From: Promethearchaeota archaeon
GTDB lineage: Archaea; Asgardarchaeota; Lokiarchaeia; Sigyniarchaeales; SOKP01
Length of the DNA: 64,000 nucleotides
Reading direction: 5' to 3'
Assembly: GCA_048937405.1 (NCBI GenBank)
Contig: JBHLNF010000001.1
Span: 512,001 to 576,000 of the forward strand
The position numbers and the translations under genes are program-made. Below, one piece after another: positions 38,890-50,144 of the stretch; position 1 is the stretch's first letter, and every line of letters begins with the position of its first letter. The notes beneath the pieces are model-generated. The model saw only the letters and a program-made list of their open reading frames with translations, had not been told where the DNA came from and ran no database searches.

Positions 38890-39492
38890 ATGGTAGATAA
38901 GAATTTTATATTAAAAATAAGGCAATTCGCTCTTGATAATTCAGAACAAGATGATATTCATGGTTTCTTACATGTTGAGCGCGTTCTTAACTTATGTCTC
39001 AAATTAGGAAAAAAATTAGATGCTAATTTATTAGTACTTGAAATTGCAGCTTTATTGCACGATATTGGAAGAAAATATAAAGATAAAAAAAATATTAATA
39101 AGAAGCATGCTGAATTATCAGCTGAGATGGCTTCTAAATTCTTAACCGCCCATGACTTTAAACTTTCTCAAGATTCTCTTGATAATATAAATCACTGCAT
39201 TAGAACTCATTCTTTCTCAAATAATATGAAACCTCAAACTCTTGAGGCAAAAATATTGTCCGATGCAGATAAAATAGATGCTCTAGGTGCAATAGGATTA
39301 TACAGGACAATAGGATTCACTATTACAAATAAAGGAGGAATTGACCAAGTTATTCAACATTTGGAAAATAAAATATTAAAATTAAGAGAATTATTATATC
39401 TAGATTTGAGTAAAAAAATCGCAGAAGCAAAACAACAAATAATAGTGGATTTCTACCAGAAAATTAAAGAAGAAATTATGGGTTTATATTAA
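38890..39492 (+). CDS. HD-domain phosphohydrolase
   Basis: HGFLHVERV, LLHDIG and DADKIDALGAIG motifs. Confidence 0.9.
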   Translation: MVDKNFILKIRQFALDNSEQDDIHGFLHVERVLNLCLKLGKKLDANLLVLEIAALLHDIGRKYKDKKNINKKHAELSAEMASKFLTAHDFKLSQDSLDNINHCIRTHSFSNNMKPQTLEAKILSDADKIDALGAIGLYRTIGFTITNKGGIDQVIQHLENKILKLRELLYLDLSKKIAEAKQQIIVDFYQKIKEEIMGLY

Positions 39493-39544
39493 TACAAATA
39501 AATAATTTTCTTAGTAAAAATAATTGATATAGTAAAGGATTTTT

Positions 39545-40012
39545 ATGCCCCAACTTGTTAAAAGTGGAAAATATATATTTGGATGGTCAAAAATAGGAAA
39601 TCAAGGTAAAATTAAAATTCCTCCCGAAGCTTTTCAAGAGTACAATTTATCAATTGATAAATCTGTTATCTTATTTTCAGGTAGTAAAACCTCAGGTGGA
39701 TTTGGATTAAGTTCTATGAGGATATTAAGAAATTCAGTTATGAATGAATTAATAGAAAAAAATCCTTTATTAGCTAATTATGAAATACCTGAGGGTGAAA
39801 TTATTGAATTCAAAAATAAAAAATATTGTTGGTTAAAAATCCAAGAAGATAAAAGTATAATTCTGCCAGAAAGAACTTTAAATGCTTTTGAAATTAATAA
39901 AAATGTTCATTTACTTTCTGGAAGAGGTAGCCATTTAGCGATTGGATTTATTGCAAAAGGATCAATATTTAAGGAAGCACAAAAACATCCTGAAATTGAA
40001 ATTTTTGAATGA
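39545..40012 (+). CDS. tandem AbrB-like domain protein
   Basis: FGWSKIGNQGKIKIPPEA swapped-hairpin pattern, repeated degenerately. Confidence 0.6.
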   Translation: MPQLVKSGKYIFGWSKIGNQGKIKIPPEAFQEYNLSIDKSVILFSGSKTSGGFGLSSMRILRNSVMNELIEKNPLLANYEIPEGEIIEFKNKKYCWLKIQEDKSIILPERTLNAFEINKNVHLLSGRGSHLAIGFIAKGSIFKEAQKHPEIEIFE

Positions 40013-40026
40013 AGATTATCAAAATA

Positions 40027-40069
40027 TTTAAATAGTATGATTCGTATGATCATATTGGTATGATCATAC
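40027..40069 (+). promoter_or_regulatory. TATA box followed by repeated GTATGATCATAC palindromic operator
   Basis: TTTAAATA at 40027..40034; GTATGAT at 40035, GTATGATCATAT at 40044..40055, GTATGATCATAC at 40058..40069. Confidence 0.65.
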
Positions 40070-40087
40070 TAATATGAATTATGAAAG

Positions 40088-40543
40088 GTGATTAAAATAA
40101 CTGAATTTCCCGATAAAAAAGGAAACTACTTTTTTGGTTCAGTAAAAGTTGGTGAACGTGGTCAAATTGTTATACCTCTTAAAGCAAGAGAGATTTTTGG
40201 GATTAATGCTAAAGATGATATACATATATTTGGAGAATTAAATAAAGGATTAGGTCTTACAAAAATGGAAATTGAGAAAAATGAATTTGAAAAGCATGAA
40301 TATTATTTTGGTACTGCTAAAGTAGGCGAAAGAGGGCAGATTGTTATTCCACAAAACGCTCGGGAGTCTTTTAAAATAAATCCTGGAGACTTAATCCTCG
40401 TATTTGGGGATATTAAAAAAGGACTTGGTCTAATGAAAGCCACAAGATTGAAAAATTTTGCTTTAAAACTATTTCAAGGATTTGGAAGTGGTTTAGGGGA
40501 AATTCAGGAAAATAATAAAGATGATTTAAATGGTGAACAATAA
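40088..40543 (+). CDS. AbrB/MazE/SpoVT family regulator with two domains
   Basis: Two copies of KVGERGQIVIP; start may be ATA 40097. Confidence 0.9.
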   Translation: MIKITEFPDKKGNYFFGSVKVGERGQIVIPLKAREIFGINAKDDIHIFGELNKGLGLTKMEIEKNEFEKHEYYFGTAKVGERGQIVIPQNARESFKINPGDLILVFGDIKKGLGLMKATRLKNFALKLFQGFGSGLGEIQENNKDDLNGEQ

Positions 40544-41063
40544 AAAACAATCAAATTTAGATTTTAGATGTATGTCTTTTTTCTTTAAAATTCGAGATAT
40601 ATTTCATAATCCTATAAAAAAAATCGAAAATGCTGGTATTAAACAAGGAGAAACAGTATTAGATTATGGATGTGGTCCAGGAAGTTATTCTTTAGCTGCT
40701 GCTGAAAAAATAGGGACAATGGGAAAACTTATCGCAGCAGATATTCATCCATTAGCATTGAAAAGGGTGAGAAAGAAAGCAAAAAAAATGGGTTATAACA
40801 ATATTGAAACAATTCAGACAGATTGTGATACTAAATTGGCTGATGAAAGTATTGATCGAATAATTTGTTTTGATGTACTTCATGGAATCTCTAATACAAA
40901 TAACATTATAAAAGAATTTTATAGAGTTCTAAAGCCAAATTCGATACTCAGTCTTGATGATCATCATTATAATGAAGATCAAATAATTGATTTCATTACT
41001 TCTAAAGGACTCTTTAAATTATCTTATAGTAATGATAAACAATACAATTTTATTAAAATTTAA
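40530..41063 (+). CDS. class I SAM-dependent methyltransferase
   Basis: VLDYGCGPG motif. Confidence 0.88.
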   Translation: MVNNKKQSNLDFRCMSFFFKIRDIFHNPIKKIENAGIKQGETVLDYGCGPGSYSLAAAEKIGTMGKLIAADIHPLALKRVRKKAKKMGYNNIETIQTDCDTKLADESIDRIICFDVLHGISNTNNIIKEFYRVLKPNSILSLDDHHYNEDQIIDFITSKGLFKLSYSNDKQYNFIKI

Positions 41064-41121
41064 AAAATACAAAATTTGAGAAATCCCCTATAATCAAGAT
41101 ATTTACTGTGGGAATGTCAAA

Positions 41122-41682
41122 TCATTTTTTTTCTATTTTTCTATAATTTAAAACAGTTCCTTCTTCAATCCCGCTCCAATGAAACATCGGACGTTTAAAT
41201 TGCTCAACTAATTCAAAACCCATTTCTTTTATTAGTTTTTTGACTTTATTTAATTGGATTCCATAAGATCCTATATGAGTAGCAAAATAAGATAGAATAC
41301 CATAATTTATTTTTAAAATCCTATATATTTCGTTCAATAAATTAACTCGGTCATCCTTATCAATTAAATGATAAACATCATACATTAATACAACATCAAT
41401 AGAATTAGAATTCAAAGGAATCGATATCTCTTTCGAAGTTTTTATTATTTCAATATTAGAAATATTTTGATTTTTAATTTTATCAGATAATTCCTCTAAA
41501 ATATCTTCATCGTAATCAAGAGCATAAATTTTACCTTTATCTCCAACTATTTTTGAAGCAATTACAGAATATACACCTGAGCCACATCCAAAATCTAATA
41601 GATGTTGTCCACTTTTTATACCATAATCTCTAAGTATACTATCTCCCTTCAAATTTAGCCATTCTTCCATATGTAATTCCAC
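41122..41682 (-). CDS. class I SAM-dependent methyltransferase
   Basis: LLDFGCGSG motif; start probably ATG 41670. Confidence 0.88.
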   Translation of the reverse strand: MELHMEEWLNLKGDSILRDYGIKSGQHLLDFGCGSGVYSVIASKIVGDKGKIYALDYDEDILEELSDKIKNQNISNIEIIKTSKEISIPLNSNSIDVVLMYDVYHLIDKDDRVNLLNEIYRILKINYGILSYFATHIGSYGIQLNKVKKLIKEMGFELVEQFKRPMFHWSGIEEGTVLNYRKIEKK

Positions 41683-41793: not shown

Positions 41794-42339
41794 CTAATAA
41801 TCAAGAGAAAAGGTTTGCTTAACCCATTCCTCAATATCTTTTTTTGAATTAGATTGAGGTTGTGCTCCTTTATATAGATCTTTTTTTCTTTGTTCTTCCA
41901 TCATTTTAGAAAGATCCCTTAATGAGATGATTTTTCCATTCCTAATCTCTATTTCAAGAACTGTCTTAAAAGCCATTGGTCTCTGAAATCCCATATGCAC
42001 ATACATCGATTGTATAAAATCTTTTGCAAGAAGGATACTCCCAGTAAAGTTTGTTTGAAGATTTAAATTTATATAATGATATTTAAATAGAGAATTCCCC
42101 TGTTGAGGTTCAATATCATTGATTTTTGGAGGATTATCAACATTTACCTGTAATTCATCAAGGATTAATAAACTTTTTGTAAATACATATTTCATAACAT
42201 AACCACGCCAACAAGCAGTGCAGCTAGAGTATGGTGATATACCTAAATCCTCAGGTTTAGTTAACCCATGACCTTTCAAACCAACTAATGAAAAAACTTC
42301 TCCATTTAATATGAATTCATCAGGAATTTGTGCTGTCAT
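41794..42339 (-). CDS. conserved-looking hypothetical protein
   Basis: MTAQIPD..CTACWRGY..YVHMGF; 10 nt downstream of the profilin-TrmB gene. Confidence 0.7.
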   Translation of the reverse strand: MTAQIPDEFILNGEVFSLVGLKGHGLTKPEDLGISPYSSCTACWRGYVMKYVFTKSLLILDELQVNVDNPPKINDIEPQQGNSLFKYHYINLNLQTNFTGSILLAKDFIQSMYVHMGFQRPMAFKTVLEIEIRNGKIISLRDLSKMMEEQRKKDLYKGAQPQSNSKKDIEEWVKQTFSLDY

Positions 42340-42349
42340 TATGAAAACC

Positions 42350-43588
42350 TCACAGTTTTAAGATAATACTCAATAATATTGGAAAATGTTCTTCAGATCC
42401 CCATACGACATAAATCTTATCCTCTAGGGGAATTGCTACATGTCTGGCAGCTACGATCCAATCAGTGCCAACATTATTTCCCGTTTCAGTCCCTTCTTTA
42501 AATTTGAAATACATAGTCATTCCCAAATAGTCTTGGATTTTTGTGTCCTCGATTCTAATATCCTCAAGATCAGGAATTGTGTATTCTTTGACATCGAGGT
42601 CAGGTTGTATAGGTTCTCTCATTTTTTCAGATGAAAGTTGTAAGGCAGCTTTAATAATAACTTCTTCCTTCACTTTTTTGTTATATTCAAAAATAATTAA
42701 ACCACAATCCTTTTCCTCACCCGTTACTCCAAGAGTGTTAAAATCAAAAGATTTTTCGCTATACAATTGAAAATCTTTTTTAATTTCTGTCATATCCATC
42801 CAACCATTCTCAAGTGTTTCCCCCATTATATAGCGAAAACTCTTTAAAATCTTTAACTCCTCTTCTTTTTGCTGAATTCGTTCATCGAATATATCATTTA
42901 ATGGTCTAGCAATATATTCTTGTGCACTCCGAGGCATCAACGGCAATTTCAATATCCAACCCTTACTTATCAAACGATCAATTATTCGATATATTGTCGT
43001 TCTTTTAATAGAGAGATCATCATTCAACTCACCAACTTTAGCTCCATTTTTACCTCTTGTTAATAAAGCCAAATAAACTTTTGCTTCTTCAATGCTTAAT
43101 CCAAATTTTAACAATCCAAGCTCTTGTAAATTATTTGTATCGTCAAGGAGTATTCTGGGAGTCGCCCATTTTAATTCTTCTACTTTACCTAAAGGAGTAT
43201 CGAAGTCCATATAAGGTTTCTTTGAACTTAACTTGCTTAAAGTTCGAGAAGCTTCCATCATTCCAAGTCGCTTTAATCCATTCGGAGCGACTTTACATAT
43301 AATCATCCTTTCTTCATCTTTAAATCCTAAAATTCCACCTTTCTCATTTGGTTCTATCCCAACCAATCTTTCAGGAGTAATTTGAATGATAACATATTTA
43401 ATACCCGAGATCATAAGAGACGTATGCTTCTTTGACCTCCAAACTGAAATAATCTCATTAATATCACTACTAATATCCCAATTATCTGTTGAATATTCTA
43501 ACTCTTTTTCTCCTTTTATTATTGCTGCAGCAATGGTTTTTGCTTCAGATTGTATTAATTCATTAAGAGCCTGTATTATTTTTTCCAT
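42350..43588 (-). CDS. Asgard profilin-like domain fused to a TrmB-type winged HTH and a C-terminal domain
   Basis: aa 1-120: AAAII..YSTDNWDIS..SLMISGIKYVIIQITPERLVG..G.ILG (Loki profilin pattern); aa ~155-245: FGLSIEEAKVYLALL..IKRTTIYRIIDRLISKGWI..YIARP. Confidence 0.8.
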   Translation of the reverse strand: MEKIIQALNELIQSEAKTIAAAIIKGEKELEYSTDNWDISSDINEIISVWRSKKHTSLMISGIKYVIIQITPERLVGIEPNEKGGILGFKDEERMIICKVAPNGLKRLGMMEASRTLSKLSSKKPYMDFDTPLGKVEELKWATPRILLDDTNNLQELGLLKFGLSIEEAKVYLALLTRGKNGAKVGELNDDLSIKRTTIYRIIDRLISKGWILKLPLMPRSAQEYIARPLNDIFDERIQQKEEELKILKSFRYIMGETLENGWMDMTEIKKDFQLYSEKSFDFNTLGVTGEEKDCGLIIFEYNKKVKEEVIIKAALQLSSEKMREPIQPDLDVKEYTIPDLEDIRIEDTKIQDYLGMTMYFKFKEGTETGNNVGTDWIVAARHVAIPLEDKIYVVWGSEEHFPILLSIILKL

Positions 43589-43638
43589 ACTTTAATACCC
43601 TCTCTATTATCTTTTTCAATTTTATAAAAAAAAATTAT

Positions 43639-43836
43639 TTATTTTTCTCCAAATTTCCTTTTTATTTCATCTAATACCTTTTTGTAATACATATTTTCTT
43701 TAGATTCTTGAATTTCCGTGAAATATTCCGGCATTATTAAATTCTTGGATTTTTGTTTTAGATCTTTTTCCGATATAATAATTCCTTCATCCAGTACTAT
43801 GCAAGCAATTCCATCCATTATTCTTATTCTTACCAT
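43639..43836 (-). CDS. small hypothetical protein in the actin cluster
   Basis: 65 aa; AGGGA SD before ATG; 36 nt after the actin stop. Confidence 0.7.
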   Translation of the reverse strand: MVRIRIMDGIACIVLDEGIIISEKDLKQKSKNLIMPEYFTEIQESKENMYYKKVLDEIKRKFGEK

Positions 43837-43872
43837 TATTGTCCCTTCTAATTTAATACTGATAATTCCTAA

Positions 43873-45018
43873 TTAAAAACATCGATGGATAACTTGAGGA
43901 CCTAATTCCTTGTAATCTCGTCTAGTAATCCACATCCTATAAAAAGTCTTTAAAGAACTTAAAATAGATCCGCCAATCCACACCGAATACATTCGTTCAG
44001 GAGGAGCTATTATTTTGACATCAATTGATTCTGGAATTTGTTCTTTGATTTCTCGGGTTAATCTCTCTTTAATACCGGGAAACATTGTAGAACCACCTGA
44101 AAGAACAATATTACTATAAAGATCTCTTCGTAAATCTACATCACACTCAGATATTGCGCCTATTATAACATCATCTAAGGGAGCTAATTCTTTTCCTACA
44201 ACAGAAGGATTAAATAAACATTCCGGAGCTAAAAACCTTTCAAGTCCAATTGTAATAGTTTCACCATCAGGAAGCATAAAATTCTTTGCCATCCCAGCTA
44301 CTTTATTGGAAAGAATAATTTCCTTTTCTGGATCAATAGCAACATAGCATAATTTTTCTTTAATATCTCTTACAATCTCTTTCTCGGCTGAAGTATAAAA
44401 TGAATATCCATTTTGCCTTAATAACCTCTGCAAATATGTTGTAACATCCCTTCCAGCTAGATCAATTCGCTGTATCGCATGACTTAATGCAAATCCCTCA
44501 AATATGGGTACTATATGTGCAACTCCATCTCCGATATCTACAACACATCCCGTCGTTCGACCAGAAGCATAAAGTGATAAGACTGCTTGTGTTGCGATAT
44601 AAAGAGCTGGGACATTGAATGTTTCGAACATTATTTCTGCCATTTTTTCTCTATTTGATCTGGGATTCAATGGAGCTTCTGTTAATAGTACAGGAAATTC
44701 TGATGGATCAATTCTTAGATCTGTATAGAATGTATAATGATATATTCTTTCCATTGCTGGCCAATCTTCAACAACTCCATGTTCGATAGGAAATTGTAGA
44801 TTCATTATCCCTTTTAATTCCATCGCTTCTTCTCCAATATACCATTCTCGACTGTAATCTTTTACATCAGGCATAATGTTACCATATTTTGGTTTTCCAA
44901 TAACAGTTGGAAAAACCGAACGTGGCTGATCTTCACCTCCAAAACCATTTTTTGAGATTCCTGTCCCATTATCTATAACAATAGCTCTATTATTTCTAAA
45001 GTCCCCGTTGACTGAAAT
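43873..45018 (-). CDS. Asgard actin homolog (381 aa), probable ATT start
   Basis: Frame extends 48 codons upstream of the track ATG and adds IVIDNGTGISKNGFGGEDQPRSVFPT; also LLTEAPLNP, LYASGRTTG, DIGDG, LSGGSTMFPG, SVWIGGSIL and IHRCF. Confidence 0.95.
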   Translation of the reverse strand: MSVNGDFRNNRAIVIDNGTGISKNGFGGEDQPRSVFPTVIGKPKYGNIMPDVKDYSREWYIGEEAMELKGIMNLQFPIEHGVVEDWPAMERIYHYTFYTDLRIDPSEFPVLLTEAPLNPRSNREKMAEIMFETFNVPALYIATQAVLSLYASGRTTGCVVDIGDGVAHIVPIFEGFALSHAIQRIDLAGRDVTTYLQRLLRQNGYSFYTSAEKEIVRDIKEKLCYVAIDPEKEIILSNKVAGMAKNFMLPDGETITIGLERFLAPECLFNPSVVGKELAPLDDVIIGAISECDVDLRRDLYSNIVLSGGSTMFPGIKERLTREIKEQIPESIDVKIIAPPERMYSVWIGGSILSSLKTFYRMWITRRDYKELGPQVIHRCF

Positions 45019-45072
45019 TTTAAAACCACCTCTTTTTTTTATATTGAGTTATAGATTAAATAAAAATGATAA

Positions 45073-45102
45073 TATTTAAATGTTGTCACGATATGGTGAC
45101 AA
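45073..45102 (-). promoter_or_regulatory. actin promoter TATA box with an adjacent palindromic operator
   Basis: TTTAAATA at 45080..45073; perfect inverted repeat TTGTCAC-GATATG-GTGACAA at 45083..45102. Confidence 0.65.
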
Positions 45103-45177
45103 TTATGTTATGAATTGTAAACAACAAAAAAAAAAATTAATTAACTCAAAATTTCTTTAAATAGATAGAAAAGTATT

Positions 45178-45612
45178 ATGACAAGTTTAACTAGTACTGA
45201 AATAAGTTGTCCTCACTGTAAAAACTCATTTCGGATTATCTGGGAAGCATCAATAAATACGTGGTTAAATCCAGAATTAATTCAAAAAATTCTTGATGAT
45301 AGATATTATTATGAATGTCCAAAATGTACAAAACAAATACATTTTGTGACAAAGATTTTAATAAATTGTCCTAAAGGGATGTTTTGGATATCAAATGATG
45401 AAGAAATAGAAATAAAAAAAAAAATCTTGAAAGATTATGGTGTTATTAACGAGGATGGAAAGATTTTAACTCCAATAAGGGGAGTTGATCTTCCTGCAGA
45501 TGATCACCCCGGTTTGAACTCCAACTTTGATAAGATAATTAGGAACTTTAAAGATGAGTTGTTAACTAACAATAATAATGATTCTTTAGAAAAAAAGAAT
45601 AAGAGTAGATAA
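45178..45612 (+). CDS. CpXC-type zinc-ribbon protein
   Basis: ISCPHC..SINT..PEL..ECPKC. Confidence 0.75.
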   Translation: MTSLTSTEISCPHCKNSFRIIWEASINTWLNPELIQKILDDRYYYECPKCTKQIHFVTKILINCPKGMFWISNDEEIEIKKKILKDYGVINEDGKILTPIRGVDLPADDHPGLNSNFDKIIRNFKDELLTNNNNDSLEKKNKSR

Positions 45613-45616
45613 AAGA

Positions 45617-46681
45617 TTATTTTTTAAGCAAGTTTATCAACTTTTTTACTATTAGATCCCCCATTTCTTTTGTAGTTAGTGTTTTAAAAGCACTATTCTC
45701 AATATCTATGGTTCTTCCTTCGTTAAGGGCTTCCTCCACAGATTTCTCAATTAAAAAACCTATTTCTGGAGAATTGAATGATTCTTGCAACATTAGCTTT
45801 ACACTTAGAATAGTGCCTATTGGATTAGCTATATTTTTTCCAGCAATATCAGGAGCCGAACCATGTATTGGTTCATACATAGATACATGTCCGGGATTTA
45901 TGTTTCCACTGGCGGCCATTCCTAAACTACCAATCAGAAAAGCACCTTCATCACTAGTAATATCACCAAACATATTGCCTGTAACTACTGTTTCGTAAGA
46001 ATAAGGAGCACGAATTAACCATTGACAAAAAGCATCAATATAAACATCCTCTTTCTCTAAATCGGGATAATCTTCACCAATTTTATGAAAGATATTACGC
46101 CAAAATTGACTTGCTTTTATAACATTTGCTTTATCAACAGAAGTAATTTTTTTATGACCATTCTTCTTTGCAAATTCACAAGCATATCGCATAATTCGTT
46201 CACACCCTTTTTTTGTATAAAACATTACACTTTCTGCGCTCTCATCTGATATTTCTCCGATTCCTTTATATATTCCCTCTGTATTTTCTCTAATAATAGT
46301 GAAATCAATACCTTTTCCTATAAATTCATCTCTAAGTGGACATCTATCACGTAGAGGATAATATAACTTGATTGGCCTCATATTCACGTATAGGTCTAAA
46401 TCTTGCCTTATCTTTAAGATTGCAGATTCAGCAATTCCGGGGGGTAAATCAGGAAGTCCAATAGCACCAAATAATAAAGCATCAGAATTTTTAATAATTT
46501 CAAATGTCTTTTTTGGAAGGCTTTCACCACAATCTTTCCAAACTTTACCTCCAGCTGGAGCGTTTATAAATTCAAAATCAAAATCACTATATTCAGAAAT
46601 AACTTTTAGAATCTTTATCCCTTCTTCTACTACTTCTAATCCACATCCATCACCATGAGTGACTGCAATTTCTTTTTTCAT
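45617..46681 (-). CDS. leuB: 3-isopropylmalate dehydrogenase
   Basis: GDGCGLEV, RENTEG, NMFGDITSD and EPIHGSAPDIAG motifs; operon context. Confidence 0.92.
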   Translation of the reverse strand: MKKEIAVTHGDGCGLEVVEEGIKILKVISEYSDFDFEFINAPAGGKVWKDCGESLPKKTFEIIKNSDALLFGAIGLPDLPPGIAESAILKIRQDLDLYVNMRPIKLYYPLRDRCPLRDEFIGKGIDFTIIRENTEGIYKGIGEISDESAESVMFYTKKGCERIMRYACEFAKKNGHKKITSVDKANVIKASQFWRNIFHKIGEDYPDLEKEDVYIDAFCQWLIRAPYSYETVVTGNMFGDITSDEGAFLIGSLGMAASGNINPGHVSMYEPIHGSAPDIAGKNIANPIGTILSVKLMLQESFNSPEIGFLIEKSVEEALNEGRTIDIENSAFKTLTTKEMGDLIVKKLINLLKK

Positions 46682-47199
46682 TATGATCCCTCTTCTGAAT
46701 TGGTAATTTGTTCTCTTGCAAAATTTATTAGACCTTGTGCTTTAATTATTTTCTGTAAAAAAGCTGGAAATTTGCTAAAGGAATATGATTTGCTAGTGGT
46801 TATATTTTCTATAATTCCGTTCCCAAAGTCAATATTTAGTAGATCTCCATTATTAAAAGCATCGATGTCAGAAAACCGAAGAATTGGAAGTCCAATATTA
46901 ATGGCATTTCTGAAAAATATACGTGCAAAACTGGGAGCGATAATTAATTCTATTCCCGAAGCTTTTAAAGCAATTGGTGCTTGTTCTCGGCTTGAACCAC
47001 AACCAAAATTTGAGCCTGAGACGAGAATTGTTGCCTGAAGATTATCTTTATTCTTATGAAACTCCCCATCTAAATCTTCCATGCAATGCTCAGCTAAAAA
47101 CTGAGGATTTATGTCTACTAAGTATCGAGCAGGGATTATTAAATCTGTATTGATATTTTCTTGAGCATATTTAATTACTTTTCCTTTTATTTCTATCAC
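46681..47199 (-). CDS. leuD: 3-isopropylmalate dehydratase small subunit
   Basis: INTDLIIPARYL, NFGCGSSREQA and FARIFFRN motifs; start may be ATA 47190. Confidence 0.93.
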   Translation of the reverse strand: MIEIKGKVIKYAQENINTDLIIPARYLVDINPQFLAEHCMEDLDGEFHKNKDNLQATILVSGSNFGCGSSREQAPIALKASGIELIIAPSFARIFFRNAINIGLPILRFSDIDAFNNGDLLNIDFGNGIIENITTSKSYSFSKFPAFLQKIIKAQGLINFAREQITNSEEGS

Positions 47200-47215
47200 C
47201 TTTTATATTTTACCT

Positions 47216-48487
47216 TTATATACTTTCTGGAGATATAATAAACCCTTTTAAAGCGGAAGATGCAGCAATCACTGGATTTGATAAATAGACTTCGCTTTCG
47301 GTGTGTCCCATCCTTCCCATAAAATTTCTATTTGTTGTTGATATTGCTCTTTCACCAGGAGCAAGGATTCCCATATGTCCTCCTAAACATGGTCCACATG
47401 TGGGTGGAGAAACAACCGCTCCAGCTTTAAGAAAAATTTCGATTAATCCTTCTTTAAGAGCATGAAGTTGAATGGTAGGAGTCCCTGGAATAATAATGCA
47501 TCTCACATTTGGATGGACCTTGTTGTTTTTCATTATTTTTGCTGCTAACCGTAGATCTTCCATTCGTCCATTGGTACAAGAACCTATTACCGCTTGGTCG
47601 ATTTCAATATGTAAATCTTGTACTTCAGATATAGGTTTTGTATTGCTTGGTAAGTGTGGAAGAGCTATTTGAGGTTCAATATTACTACAATCAATCTCAA
47701 TACTATCATGATATTTCACATTATTATCATCATATGTTTTAAATTTTGAAATTCCTACACTTTTCATATATTGTTCAGTAATTTTATCTGGAAAAATGAA
47801 TCCTGTTTTTGCTCCAGCTTCTATCGCCATATTACACATAGTAAAACGGTTTGTCATAGAAAAGTTGTTGATAATTTCTCCTGTAAACTCCATAACCTTA
47901 TATGTTGCCCCATCAACCCCAATTTTACCAATGGTATACAAAATTAAATCTTTACCAGAAACCCATTTATTCAACTGACCAGTATATATGAATCTCAAGG
48001 TTTCAGGTACTTGTAACCAACATTTTCCAAGAGCCATGGCTACACCTAGATCAGTCGAGCCAACACCCGTAGAAAAGGCTCCTAATGCCCCATATGTACA
48101 AGTATGAGAATCAGCACCAATAATTAACTCACTTGGAGCAACTAAACCCTGTTCGGGAATAAGACAATGTTCAATGCCTACTTTTCCTATTTCAAAATAG
48201 TGTTGAATGTGGTATTTCTTTGCAAAATCTTTTAAAATTTTGCACTGTATTGCCGAAGCAATATCCTTATTTGGTGTAAAATGATCTGGTGTAATTATTA
48301 TCTTGCTCGGATCGAAAACACTTCTTTCAGTTCCTTCAATAACTTTTTCGAAAACTTCTATAGCTTTTGGTGCAGTTATATCATTACCTAAACATTTATC
48401 GATATTTACTAAAACAAAATCTCCAGCAGAAATGTCCTTTTGATCACAATGATCTCTTATAATTTTTTCACTAATTGTTAGATCCAT
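47216..48487 (-). CDS. leuC: 3-isopropylmalate dehydratase large subunit
   Basis: GADSHTCT, IGSCTNGR, CGPCLGGH and NRNFMGRMG motifs. Confidence 0.94.
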   Translation of the reverse strand: MDLTISEKIIRDHCDQKDISAGDFVLVNIDKCLGNDITAPKAIEVFEKVIEGTERSVFDPSKIIITPDHFTPNKDIASAIQCKILKDFAKKYHIQHYFEIGKVGIEHCLIPEQGLVAPSELIIGADSHTCTYGALGAFSTGVGSTDLGVAMALGKCWLQVPETLRFIYTGQLNKWVSGKDLILYTIGKIGVDGATYKVMEFTGEIINNFSMTNRFTMCNMAIEAGAKTGFIFPDKITEQYMKSVGISKFKTYDDNNVKYHDSIEIDCSNIEPQIALPHLPSNTKPISEVQDLHIEIDQAVIGSCTNGRMEDLRLAAKIMKNNKVHPNVRCIIIPGTPTIQLHALKEGLIEIFLKAGAVVSPPTCGPCLGGHMGILAPGERAISTTNRNFMGRMGHTESEVYLSNPVIAASSALKGFIISPESI

Positions 48488-48527
48488 AGTTATAATAATT
48501 TTTTTTTTAAATTGAAATTAATTGATT

Positions 48528-50144
48528 TTATGACTGGCTTTTTTTCTTAACAATTAGGTTCAATCCTTTTATCAACGATAAAACAGAGCACATAACAATA
48601 TCTTCATGAATCGCACTAGCTTTAACCACTGTATTAGTTTCAACATCCATGATTTCAAGAGTAACATGCCCTAATGCCTCAGTCCCCCCTGTAATAGCAT
48701 CAATTTGAAAATTTAAAAGCACTATCTTACTCATCGGTTTAAAGCATTTAACAATTGCTTTACAGGAGGCATCTACAGGTCCTACTCCCGTTGCTGATGC
48801 TACTTTTTGCATTATATCTCCATTATTTTTGATGTTTAGTCGAACTGTTGATGTAGGTGTAACTGATCCAGTTAAAACAGTTAACTCCTCAAGCGTTACA
48901 AATTGTTCTTCTTTTGGTATTTCACCCATAACATCTTTCACAATAGCTAAGAAATCCTCTTCAGAAACTTCATGCCCCTTATCACCAAGACTTTTTACAT
49001 GTTCTCTTATTTTCATAAATTGTTCATCATTGGTCTTAATACCTAAGTCATCAATCTTAGCTTTAAGAGCATGACCACCTGTGTGTTTTCCAAGTTTTAT
49101 TGATTGCTTGATTATTGCTTCCACGTCGTCAGTACGGTGAATTCCTATTAATTCTGGAGTAATTGGTTCATATGTTCGTGCATGTTGTATCATTGCATGA
49201 GCATGGATACCTGCTTCATGAGCAAACGCATTCTGACCTATTAGTGGTTGCAATCGTCCGATCCTAACTTTTCCACCACAATAACTCTCAATTAATTTGG
49301 CTGTGGGAAAAATTTTTGTTGTTTTAATATTCATAGGGATCTGGTATAAAGCATAAAGAGACATACAAGTTTCTTCAAAAGATGCATTTCCTGCTCGTTC
49401 ACCCAATCCTAAAATAGTTGTTTGAGCTTCTGAAGCACCATTTTCAAACGCAGCGACAGTATTTGCAACAGCAAGGCCAAAATCATTATGACAATGGGCT
49501 GCAATACGAATATTTTTAGGTAAAGCTTCATGATTCTTCCGAATAATATATCCAAAAGCTACTGGAGATATTGTACCTACAGTGTCAGGTATATTTATTC
49601 GTGTGGCTCCGCTATCAATAGCAGTTAAATTAGCTTTAATTAAAAAGTCTAAATCTGATCTAGTAGCATCCTCTGCTGAAAATAAAACTATAGAATAATG
49701 TTCTTTAGCATAAGAGACAGTTTCTCTTATTCGTTCTATAACTTCATCTTTGGATAATTGAAGTTTTTCTCTCATATGTAATTCTGAAGTGGCGCAAAAT
49801 AAATGTATACTATCCATATCAGCCTCGATAACTTTATCTATATCGGGTTTCGCTGTTCTAGCTAAACCCATCACTTCAGAATCCAAACCCATTTTTGCAA
49901 TATCTCTACAAGCATCAAAATCACCTGGAGATGTTATAGGAAAACCCGCTTCTATAATATCAATTCCCAAATCATTAAGAGCTTGAGCAATAGATAGCTT
50001 TTCTTTATGAGTAAAACTTATACCTGGAGTTTGTTCCCCATCACGGAGTGTTGTATCAAAAAAGTATGCTCTCTCAGGAAGGATAAGTGATCCTCTAATT
50101 TTTTCCATCATGTCGGAAACAGCAATATCGTTTTTATTTACCAT
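48528..50144 (-). CDS. leuA: 2-isopropylmalate synthase with C-terminal regulatory domain
   Basis: DTTLRDGEQ, HCHNDFG, GERAGN and GVGPVDA motifs; heads leuCDB; Leu-rich leader supports the leucine pathway. Confidence 0.9.
   Translation of the reverse strand: MVNKNDIAVSDMMEKIRGSLILPERAYFFDTTLRDGEQTPGISFTHKEKLSIAQALNDLGIDIIEAGFPITSPGDFDACRDIAKMGLDSEVMGLARTAKPDIDKVIEADMDSIHLFCATSELHMREKLQLSKDEVIERIRETVSYAKEHYSIVLFSAEDATRSDLDFLIKANLTAIDSGATRINIPDTVGTISPVAFGYIIRKNHEALPKNIRIAAHCHNDFGLAVANTVAAFENGASEAQTTILGLGERAGNASFEETCMSLYALYQIPMNIKTTKIFPTAKLIESYCGGKVRIGRLQPLIGQNAFAHEAGIHAHAMIQHARTYEPITPELIGIHRTDDVEAIIKQSIKLGKHTGGHALKAKIDDLGIKTNDEQFMKIREHVKSLGDKGHEVSEEDFLAIVKDVMGEIPKEEQFVTLEELTVLTGSVTPTSTVRLNIKNNGDIMQKVASATGVGPVDASCKAIVKCFKPMSKIVLLNFQIDAITGGTEALGHVTLEIMDVETNTVVKASAIHEDIVMCSVLSLIKGLNLIVKKKSQS

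Follow-up and report, generated by a model that had tools for sequence, protein, structure and literature searches.

A profilin-TrmB fusion protein linked to an accessory lokiactin gene and its putative operator in one family of Lokiarchaeia

The locus and its conserved core

The subject of this study is an actin gene and a nearby gene for a 412-amino-acid (aa) protein that fuses a profilin domain to a TrmB-type DNA-binding domain, found in a 64,000-nucleotide (nt) stretch of a Promethearchaeota genome (assembly GCA_048937405.1, contig JBHLNF010000001.1, positions 512,001 to 576,000; hereafter the window). Four minus-strand open reading frames lie at this locus, separated by intergenic gaps of 36, 50 and 10 nt, as had been reported in a preliminary description made from the DNA sequence alone (Table 1). 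That description had treated all four genes as members of one cluster, and the comparison with related genomes does not bear this out: the 65-aa gene, although coding (ratio of nonsynonymous to synonymous substitution rates, dN/dS, 0.17), turned up in just 13 of 40 loci, and the 181-aa gene, which probably stands outside the system altogether, in 11 of them. A four-gene system was therefore rejected, and the conserved core consists of the actin gene, the operator at its promoter and the fusion gene only.

Table 1. Features of the actin-fusion locus (positions are those of the window)
Feature	Position	Strand	Remark
181-aa hypothetical protein	41794..42339	-	bacterial look-alikes; accessory
Fusion aa ~284-412, C-terminal domain	42350..42739	-	weak PsbP/Mog1/DcrB-like fold
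Fusion aa 150-255, TrmB-type winged helix-turn-helix and long helix	42824..43141	-	
Fusion aa 1-125, profilin-fold domain	43214..43588	-	
T9 tract, probable oligo-T terminator	43626..43634	-	
65-aa protein gene	43639..43836	-	coding, accessory
Accessory second lokiactin, 381 aa	43873..45018	-	probable ATT start; ATP-site and catalytic residues retained
Shine-Dalgarno GAGGTGG	45026..45032	-	ahead of ATT start
Actin TATA box TTTAAATA	45073..45080	-	near-invariant among relatives
Putative operator dyad TTGTCAC-N6-GTGACAA	45083..45102	.	3' arm GACAA overlaps position of TFB recognition element (BRE)
Degenerate third half-site	45106..45112	-	11 bp upstream of dyad, in helical phase; better match in many relatives

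The fusion is a single open frame of 400-470 aa in more than 100 relatives, with a fused profilin domain rather than a classical stand-alone profilin, and most of those listed among the 164 homologues returned by a search are full-length and in one frame. An artefact of frameshift or chimeric assembly was rejected given these more than 100 full-length relatives without stops, and it is virtually certain that the fusion and its cassette are real.

Domains of the fusion protein

The N-terminal domain of the fusion has a profilin fold. By sequence (phmmer), aa 1-125 matched Odin, Loki and Thor profilins, with E-values of 2e-9 for 5zza, 2e-8 for 5zzb and 1e-7 for 5yed, the range extending to 1e-5 when 7pbh is included. 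The AlphaFold model of the same residues superposes on Odin profilin 5zza with a VIA-align Z of 18.3 (root-mean-square deviation 2.0, 118 residues aligned), a second profilin superposition gave Z 17.1, and identity to Asgard profilins is approximately 29%. The top 32 Foldseek matches were all profilins (E 3.6e-9). Roadblock/MglB proteins are also near in structure, but lower (Z 11-12), and the Pfam profilin family PF00235 remained below its cut-off (14.9 vs 25 bits). Fold and sequence checks thus agree with the profilin assignment made in the preliminary description. Its assignment of a central TrmB winged helix-turn-helix (HTH) likewise holds, with aa 159-213 exceeding the cut-off of Pfam family PF01978 (41.9 vs 25.6 bits) and the best structural matches being TrmBL2 (5bpd, Z 11.6) and TrmB (3qph, Z 8.9). 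A long helix is predicted at aa 230-255, after the winged helix, where TrmB-family proteins have their dimerisation coiled coil (PMC4158304), making this a likely dimer helix.

The C-terminal domain is less readily classified. Modelled alone, it reached a predicted local distance difference test (pLDDT) value of 81, and its best likeness was to PsbP/Mog1/DcrB proteins at Z no higher than 6.9, which is suggestive only. Neither Pfam nor the Atlas features gave a match, and Foldseek gave none at E 0.001 or better; this is no proof of a new fold. A TrmB effector domain was not among the fold matches listed. The C-domain is a candidate second sensor, inherited from a profilin-less ancestor. Overall, the fusion would work like a TrmB-type one-component regulator with a true profilin domain; it is not a stand-alone profilin of the classical kind, nor a TrmB that senses sugars.

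The linked actin is a second lokiactin

The housekeeping lokiactin of the source genome lies on another contig and is 85% identical to the actin linked to the fusion. At least two lokiactins were found in 17 of 20 genomes with the fusion compared to none of 14 genomes without it. In a quick tree of linked and housekeeping lokiactins, the linked actins formed one branch (Shimodaira-Hasegawa-like approximate likelihood ratio test, SH-aLRT, 99), sister to and apart from the housekeeping copies, with a mean identity of 84% within the linked clade compared to 99% among the housekeeping copies. The fixed changes of the linked actins cluster in the DNase I-binding loop (D-loop) and subdomain 2; the catalytic residues and the profilin-facing surface are common to both groups, and D16, K23, H80, Q144 and H168 are invariant in 26 aligned sequences. 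The preliminary description, which spoke of actin in general as the regulated gene, therefore needs correction: the linked gene is an additional copy carried by roughly one third of the members of one family, not the near-invariant housekeeping copy of all lineages. Unrelated lokiactin duplicates with no operator adjoining occur in three other genomes. Independent duplicates without operator or fusion were seen at L128:2121-5994 (genome G102) and at L129:1310-2452 (genome G059); in G102 the distance between the copy and the housekeeping gene is 1.6 kb, and the N-terminus of the copy is altered.

Public gene calls shorten the linked actin to 333 aa, the length obtained when only ATG starts are allowed, while its frame is open to an ATT codon and encodes 381 aa. 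The ATT at 45016-45018 (minus strand) is the likely start because relatives have ATT (17 loci), TTG (4) or ATG (4) at the same codon. A weak ATT start may damp translation of the accessory actin.

A probable operator specific to the accessory actin promoter

The palindrome that the preliminary description placed against the actin TATA box is a perfect dyad, TTGTCAC-N6-GTGACAA, 2 nt before the TATA box TTTAAATA, and it is the sole such site in the 4.47-Mb genome. A position weight matrix (PWM) trained on relatives scored it at 41.7 bits, compared to 12.5 bits for the best other locus in the genome, and a wider regulon was rejected on this result. A strict pattern found the operator at 34 of 38 linked actin promoters (three more carry close variants and one sequence is too short) but at none of 19 housekeeping lokiactin promoters. 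The combined operator and TATA pattern occurred in 32 of 45 genomes with the fusion and in 3 of 89 others, at most once per genome and with no matches in the reversed control; of the three matches in genomes without the fusion, one points towards a contig edge, and the other two are weaker and precede other genes. A generic promoter feature was therefore rejected as the explanation of the palindrome, given its absence from housekeeping actins and its single site per genome. The half-site GT(G/C)ACA repeats with an 11-bp period, often three times, and the third half-site has C at position -18 in 26 of 34 sites and A at -17 in 25 of 34. In many relatives the TATA box stands 150-190 nt from the actin start (L031:4340-4580, L042:4545-4786, L055:4140-4390 and others), compared to approximately 54 nt here; parts of these long 5' leaders are alike between genera, but they align poorly (53%), and a regulatory leader is possible.

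Profilin-less paralogues of the fusion indicate what binds this site. At all 11 close paralogue loci examined, some of which are near-copies, TTGTC-N10-GACAA or a near variant lies beside the paralogue's own TATA box, mostly between the paralogue gene and a divergent methyltransferase gene, and the inner bases vary with the recognition helix. Because these paralogues carry the same dyad without actin, the dyad follows the HTH family, and it is very likely the operator of that family. The source genome has no close paralogue, only a distant one without the dyad; the fusion is therefore the obvious candidate to bind the dyad here. On this comparative evidence it is likely that the fusion binds the operator and regulates the actin promoter, so that the promoter control proposed in the preliminary description is strongly supported as a prediction, with the target changed to the accessory actin. 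The direction of control is less clear. The two adenines of the BRE are positioned where the GACAA arm lies, and a TrmB site overlapping the BRE represses at malE (PMC4158304), whereas the site from which TFB-RF1 activates is immediately upstream of the BRE (PMC5937170). By analogy, repression is slightly favoured over activation because the 3' arm of the dyad covers the BRE position, where binding would more likely block TFB.

The preliminary description had cautioned that a T9 tract might terminate transcription before the fusion gene, and this has become a conserved feature of the cassette: at least eight consecutive T stand between the actin and fusion genes at 29 of 39 loci, compared to 55 of 473 comparable gaps (12%) in the source genome. 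The tract is probably a terminator yielding much actin and little regulator, or else the fusion has a separate weak promoter; control of the actin promoter is unaffected in either case. A scan for sigma-70 promoters and hairpin terminators was at chance level, using bacterial-type models that are inapplicable to archaea.

Distribution and origin of the cassette

Full or contig-cut fusions were found in 45 of 134 genomes of the Lokiarchaeia family to which the source genome belongs, in four genera. The C-domain profile matched 57 of 133 family genomes compared to 1 of 265 other Asgard genomes; as that single match is a profilin-less paralogue, presence across Asgard phyla was rejected. The actin gene is directly upstream of the fusion in 30 of 30 loci of one set and in 39 of 40 of an overlapping set, where the fortieth stops at a contig edge. 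The linkage is thus not unique to the source genome, which would have counted against the preliminary description. At least four genera retain the gene order and the operator, even where the fusions are only 36% identical. Cassette records titled Odin-, Hod- or Hermodarchaeota (L035, L037, L047, L054 and others) match genomes that a genome search assigned to this Lokiarchaeia family, and these labels, which overstate the spread of the cassette, look wrong. Record titles also include Promethearchaeota Loki_b31.

The cassette has a single origin, and actin and fusion were lost jointly. The profilin domains of the fusions form a single branch (SH-aLRT 90), and in five genomes (G101, G077, G107, G124 and G125) all that is left of the fusion is its C-terminal stub, and no actin adjoins it. 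At 29 of 40 full-length fusion loci an HD-hydrolase gene is found no more than 6 kb away, which fits inheritance at a single chromosomal site with repeated loss. The origin may be pictured as the duplication of a TrmB regulator with its operator, one copy of which would have acquired a profilin module, and a lokiactin duplicate would have ended up between operator and regulator gene. A mosaic fusion in genome G079 (L057/L030, P0119), whose linked actin and profilin domain are near the window clade but whose HTH and C-domain belong to a distant kind, suggests recombination within the gene.

Does the profilin domain sense actin?

The explanation favoured here, tentatively as a whole, is an accessory actin cassette with an actin-sensing one-component regulator, in which one Lokiarchaeia family would combine a second lokiactin gene with an operator and a dedicated regulator. 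The fusion would probably dimerise via its long helix and bind the TTGTC-N10-GACAA dyad together with the phased upstream half-sites. The profilin domain would, with somewhat better than even prospects, bind monomeric actin at the barbed face common to both lokiactins; given both of these bindings, it is somewhat more likely than not that actin binding would alter operator occupancy, by allostery or by sequestration of the regulator. The output of the extra actin would thereby follow the free actin pool. Most transcripts would probably end at the T-tract after actin, with leak-through or a weak promoter of its own supplying little regulator.

Several observations bear on actin binding. A model of the profilin domain in complex with the actin scored 0.77 compared to 0.00 for the best control, with contact agreement between runs of at least 91% and partner pLDDT of at least 84; of 80 solved pairs 58 attain this mark, and of 110 mismatched pairs 2 do. 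The modelled contact, on actin residues 173-180, 292-296 and 358-381, is the canonical barbed-end profilin site. Since Loki and Odin profilin-actin structures are solved, the pass may reflect structures already known to the model, and it indicates likeness rather than binding. The hairpin interface residues I/L68, Q69, T/S71, E/D73 and I/V76 are conserved, the domain is under purifying selection, and its distances track those of the linked actin more closely (r 0.78) than do those of the HTH (0.62), profilin also being the nearer neighbour of actin. On balance, it is moderately probable that the domain binds actin. That actin is the signal, with monomeric actin (G-actin) on the profilin domain switching the grip of the TrmB-type factor on the second lokiactin promoter, is a possibility to be held with considerable doubt.

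A number of findings weigh against this explanation. The loci come from related genomes and are not independent by kinship, so that the counts reflect one origin, and the conserved T-tract argues against strong co-transcription of actin and fusion. Of all parts of the fusion, profilin shows the weakest conservation (entropy 1.71 compared to 1.06 for the HTH; dN/dS approximately 0.2 compared to 0.05-0.07), its predicted interface is no better conserved than the rest of the domain (1.95 vs 1.63, a comparison biased by the buried core), and its helix face 105-114 is variable. In addition, it comes from a subfamily distinct from the canonical 133-aa profilin, the same subfamily is also fused to Sir2, methyltransferase, Ras-like GTPases and leucine-rich repeats (LRRs), and its closest stand-alone relatives are away from actin in 4 of 4 loci. 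There are four other profilin-like genes in the source genome, and the C-domain, already present in the profilin-less ancestor, is a ready alternative sensor.

There are several potential alternatives to an actin sensor. The fusion may regulate the actin promoter while its profilin domain, acting as a general module, senses something other than actin, such as an anionic or inositol phospholipid (with membrane tethering) or another protein. The attachment of this module to many unrelated effectors, the variable predicted interface and the nearness of the fold to roadblock/MglB proteins are compatible with such a role, and Loki, Odin and Heimdall LC2 profilins interact with phosphatidylinositol 4,5-bisphosphate (PIP2) (PMC8410842). 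However, among the many profilin fusions this one adjoins actin in 39 of 40 loci, its nearest relatives do not, the core hairpin residues are conserved and the complex model passes its controls; a non-actin ligand is accordingly judged rather unlikely, if a serious contender. It is also possible that the promoter is regulated and actin is bound without any coupling of the two. In this case the C-domain would carry the signal, as it presumably did when the ancestor adjoined a methyltransferase gene, and profilin would only chaperone or buffer the extra actin. The C-domain is strongly conserved (entropy 1.17, dN/dS 0.06-0.11) and common to profilin-less paralogues with the same operator logic, and in the structure model a low-confidence linker (aa 132-147) parts profilin from HTH, with a whole-chain predicted template modelling (pTM) score of 0.36. 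A low-copy regulator would nevertheless make a poor bulk buffer in a genome that has stand-alone profilins, and sequence conservation of the linker is high (entropy 1.30), which suits coupling, leaving an uncoupled arrangement unlikely.

Finally, the linkage may be historical. On this reading an ancestral TrmB gene was separated from the operator through which it regulated itself when a duplicated actin and a profilin domain came in between; the dyad would now serve only autoregulation by read-through, or another factor, with any control of actin incidental. The paralogues do show the ancestral layout, in which the regulator gene immediately follows the operator, the cassette is patchy and has been deleted repeatedly, and two linked actins are damaged, one truncated and one broken (L041, L068). 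Such a relic seems improbable, however, as purifying selection on the linked actin is strong (dN/dS 0.04), its order and operator persist between distant fusions, and an operator at actin's own TATA box means that any occupancy would affect actin first.

Comparison with known systems

Stand-alone Asgard profilins (Loki profilin-1 together with profilin-2, Odin, Thor and Heimdall; 5yed/5yee, 5zzb, 5zza, 7pbh and 6yrr) share the fold of the N-terminal domain, and the model would put the fusion on the same barbed-end actin site; here, however, the domain belongs to a different subfamily, forms the N-terminus of a 412-aa DNA-binding protein and lacks an insertion seen in the alignment in both of these Loki profilins. 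The preliminary description likened the proposed control to that of MRTF-SRF. In that animal system, monomeric actin controls the factor that sets actin transcription, using RPEL motifs, a MADS box and nuclear shuttling. The likeness holds for the proposed logic only, without homology: no RPEL or MADS-box Pfam matches were found in the system proteins, profilin and winged helix are in one chain, and control would fall on a single accessory actin, in one family remote from the eukaryote-proximal lineages.

Pyrococcus furiosus TrmB, TrmBL1/Tgr and TrmBL2 (PF01978; PMC4158304) likewise have a winged HTH followed by a long helix, a palindrome at the BRE/TATA region and probable autoregulation, and the TrmBL1 site TATCAC-N5-GTGATA resembles the dyad, though with different spacing. 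The fusion differs in its N-terminal profilin and PsbP/Mog1-like C-domain, with no sugar-binding effector domain detected, and in having one target promoter per genome, that of a cytoskeletal gene, instead of a metabolic regulon. The TFB-RF1 (PF1088) operon of Thermococcales also places the regulator gene downstream of its target, with a conserved palindrome whose distance from the TATA box is fixed; its activating site lies just upstream of a weak BRE, compared to the dyad here, which overlaps the BRE position, and it involves neither a profilin nor an actin target (PMC5937170). CdrS control of ftsZ2 in haloarchaea is a further case of an archaeal transcription factor acting on a cytoskeletal gene, CdrS being a ribbon-helix-helix protein that is not known to have a domain binding the cytoskeletal product (PMC7439475). 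Compared to lokiactin itself, which is present as a single copy among four actin homologues in the cultured Ca. L. ossiferum (PMC9834061), the linked actin is an extra copy with a changed D-loop, its own operator and a non-standard start.

Other profilin-like proteins and neighbouring genes

Fusions of the profilin-like module include P0154, P0163, P0170, P0181, P0252, P0258 and P0203, with Sir2, leucine carboxyl methyltransferase, Ras-like GTPase, LRR and zinc-ribbon partners; some may be singletons. A shared-word search returned no shorter stand-alone relatives, which reflects its limited sensitivity since another listing has many. A 211-aa profilin-like protein (L107:3680-4315; G000 C29) has a helical C-terminal extension, adjoins a TFB-like gene and has relatives in most family genomes. 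A sister profilin subfamily of approximately 255 aa (L135:6017-6793, L137:4373-5134) adjoins a chemotaxis-like response-regulator cluster and a roadblock-like gene.

Within the window, positions 38890-41682 carry an HD hydrolase gene, which marks the cassette site in most relatives, along with two methyltransferase genes and the genes of two small proteins in which AbrB/MazE-like motifs are repeated. On the other side, a CpXC zinc-binding gene (45178-45612, plus strand) is divergent from the actin promoter; as it is present in close relatives only, it is unlikely to be a conserved target of the operator. Judging from translations only, positions 45617-50144 (minus strand) hold an ordinary leucine biosynthesis cluster (leuB, leuD, leuC and a leuA-like gene).

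Significance

Almost nothing is known of the regulation of eukaryote-like genes in Asgard archaea. No description of the fusion was found in a search of mainly open-access literature that included Asgard and archaeal surveys and a 2026 review. The locus offers a named regulator, a 20-bp genome-unique operator, a single target and a candidate ligand, all of which can be tested with purified proteins. Because the system is a local innovation of one Lokiarchaeia family, it speaks to convergence and not to eukaryotic ancestry. Even if actin is not the ligand, the cassette brings to light a second, probably regulated isoform of lokiactin that had not been described and whose D-loop is changed, and profilin is used as a modular domain of signalling proteins. 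If actin is the ligand, the fusion would be an independently evolved single-chain sensor of actin monomers in a prokaryote, switching on an alternative actin isoform, and feedback from the actin pool to transcription would not be a eukaryotic invention but would have arisen twice from unrelated parts.

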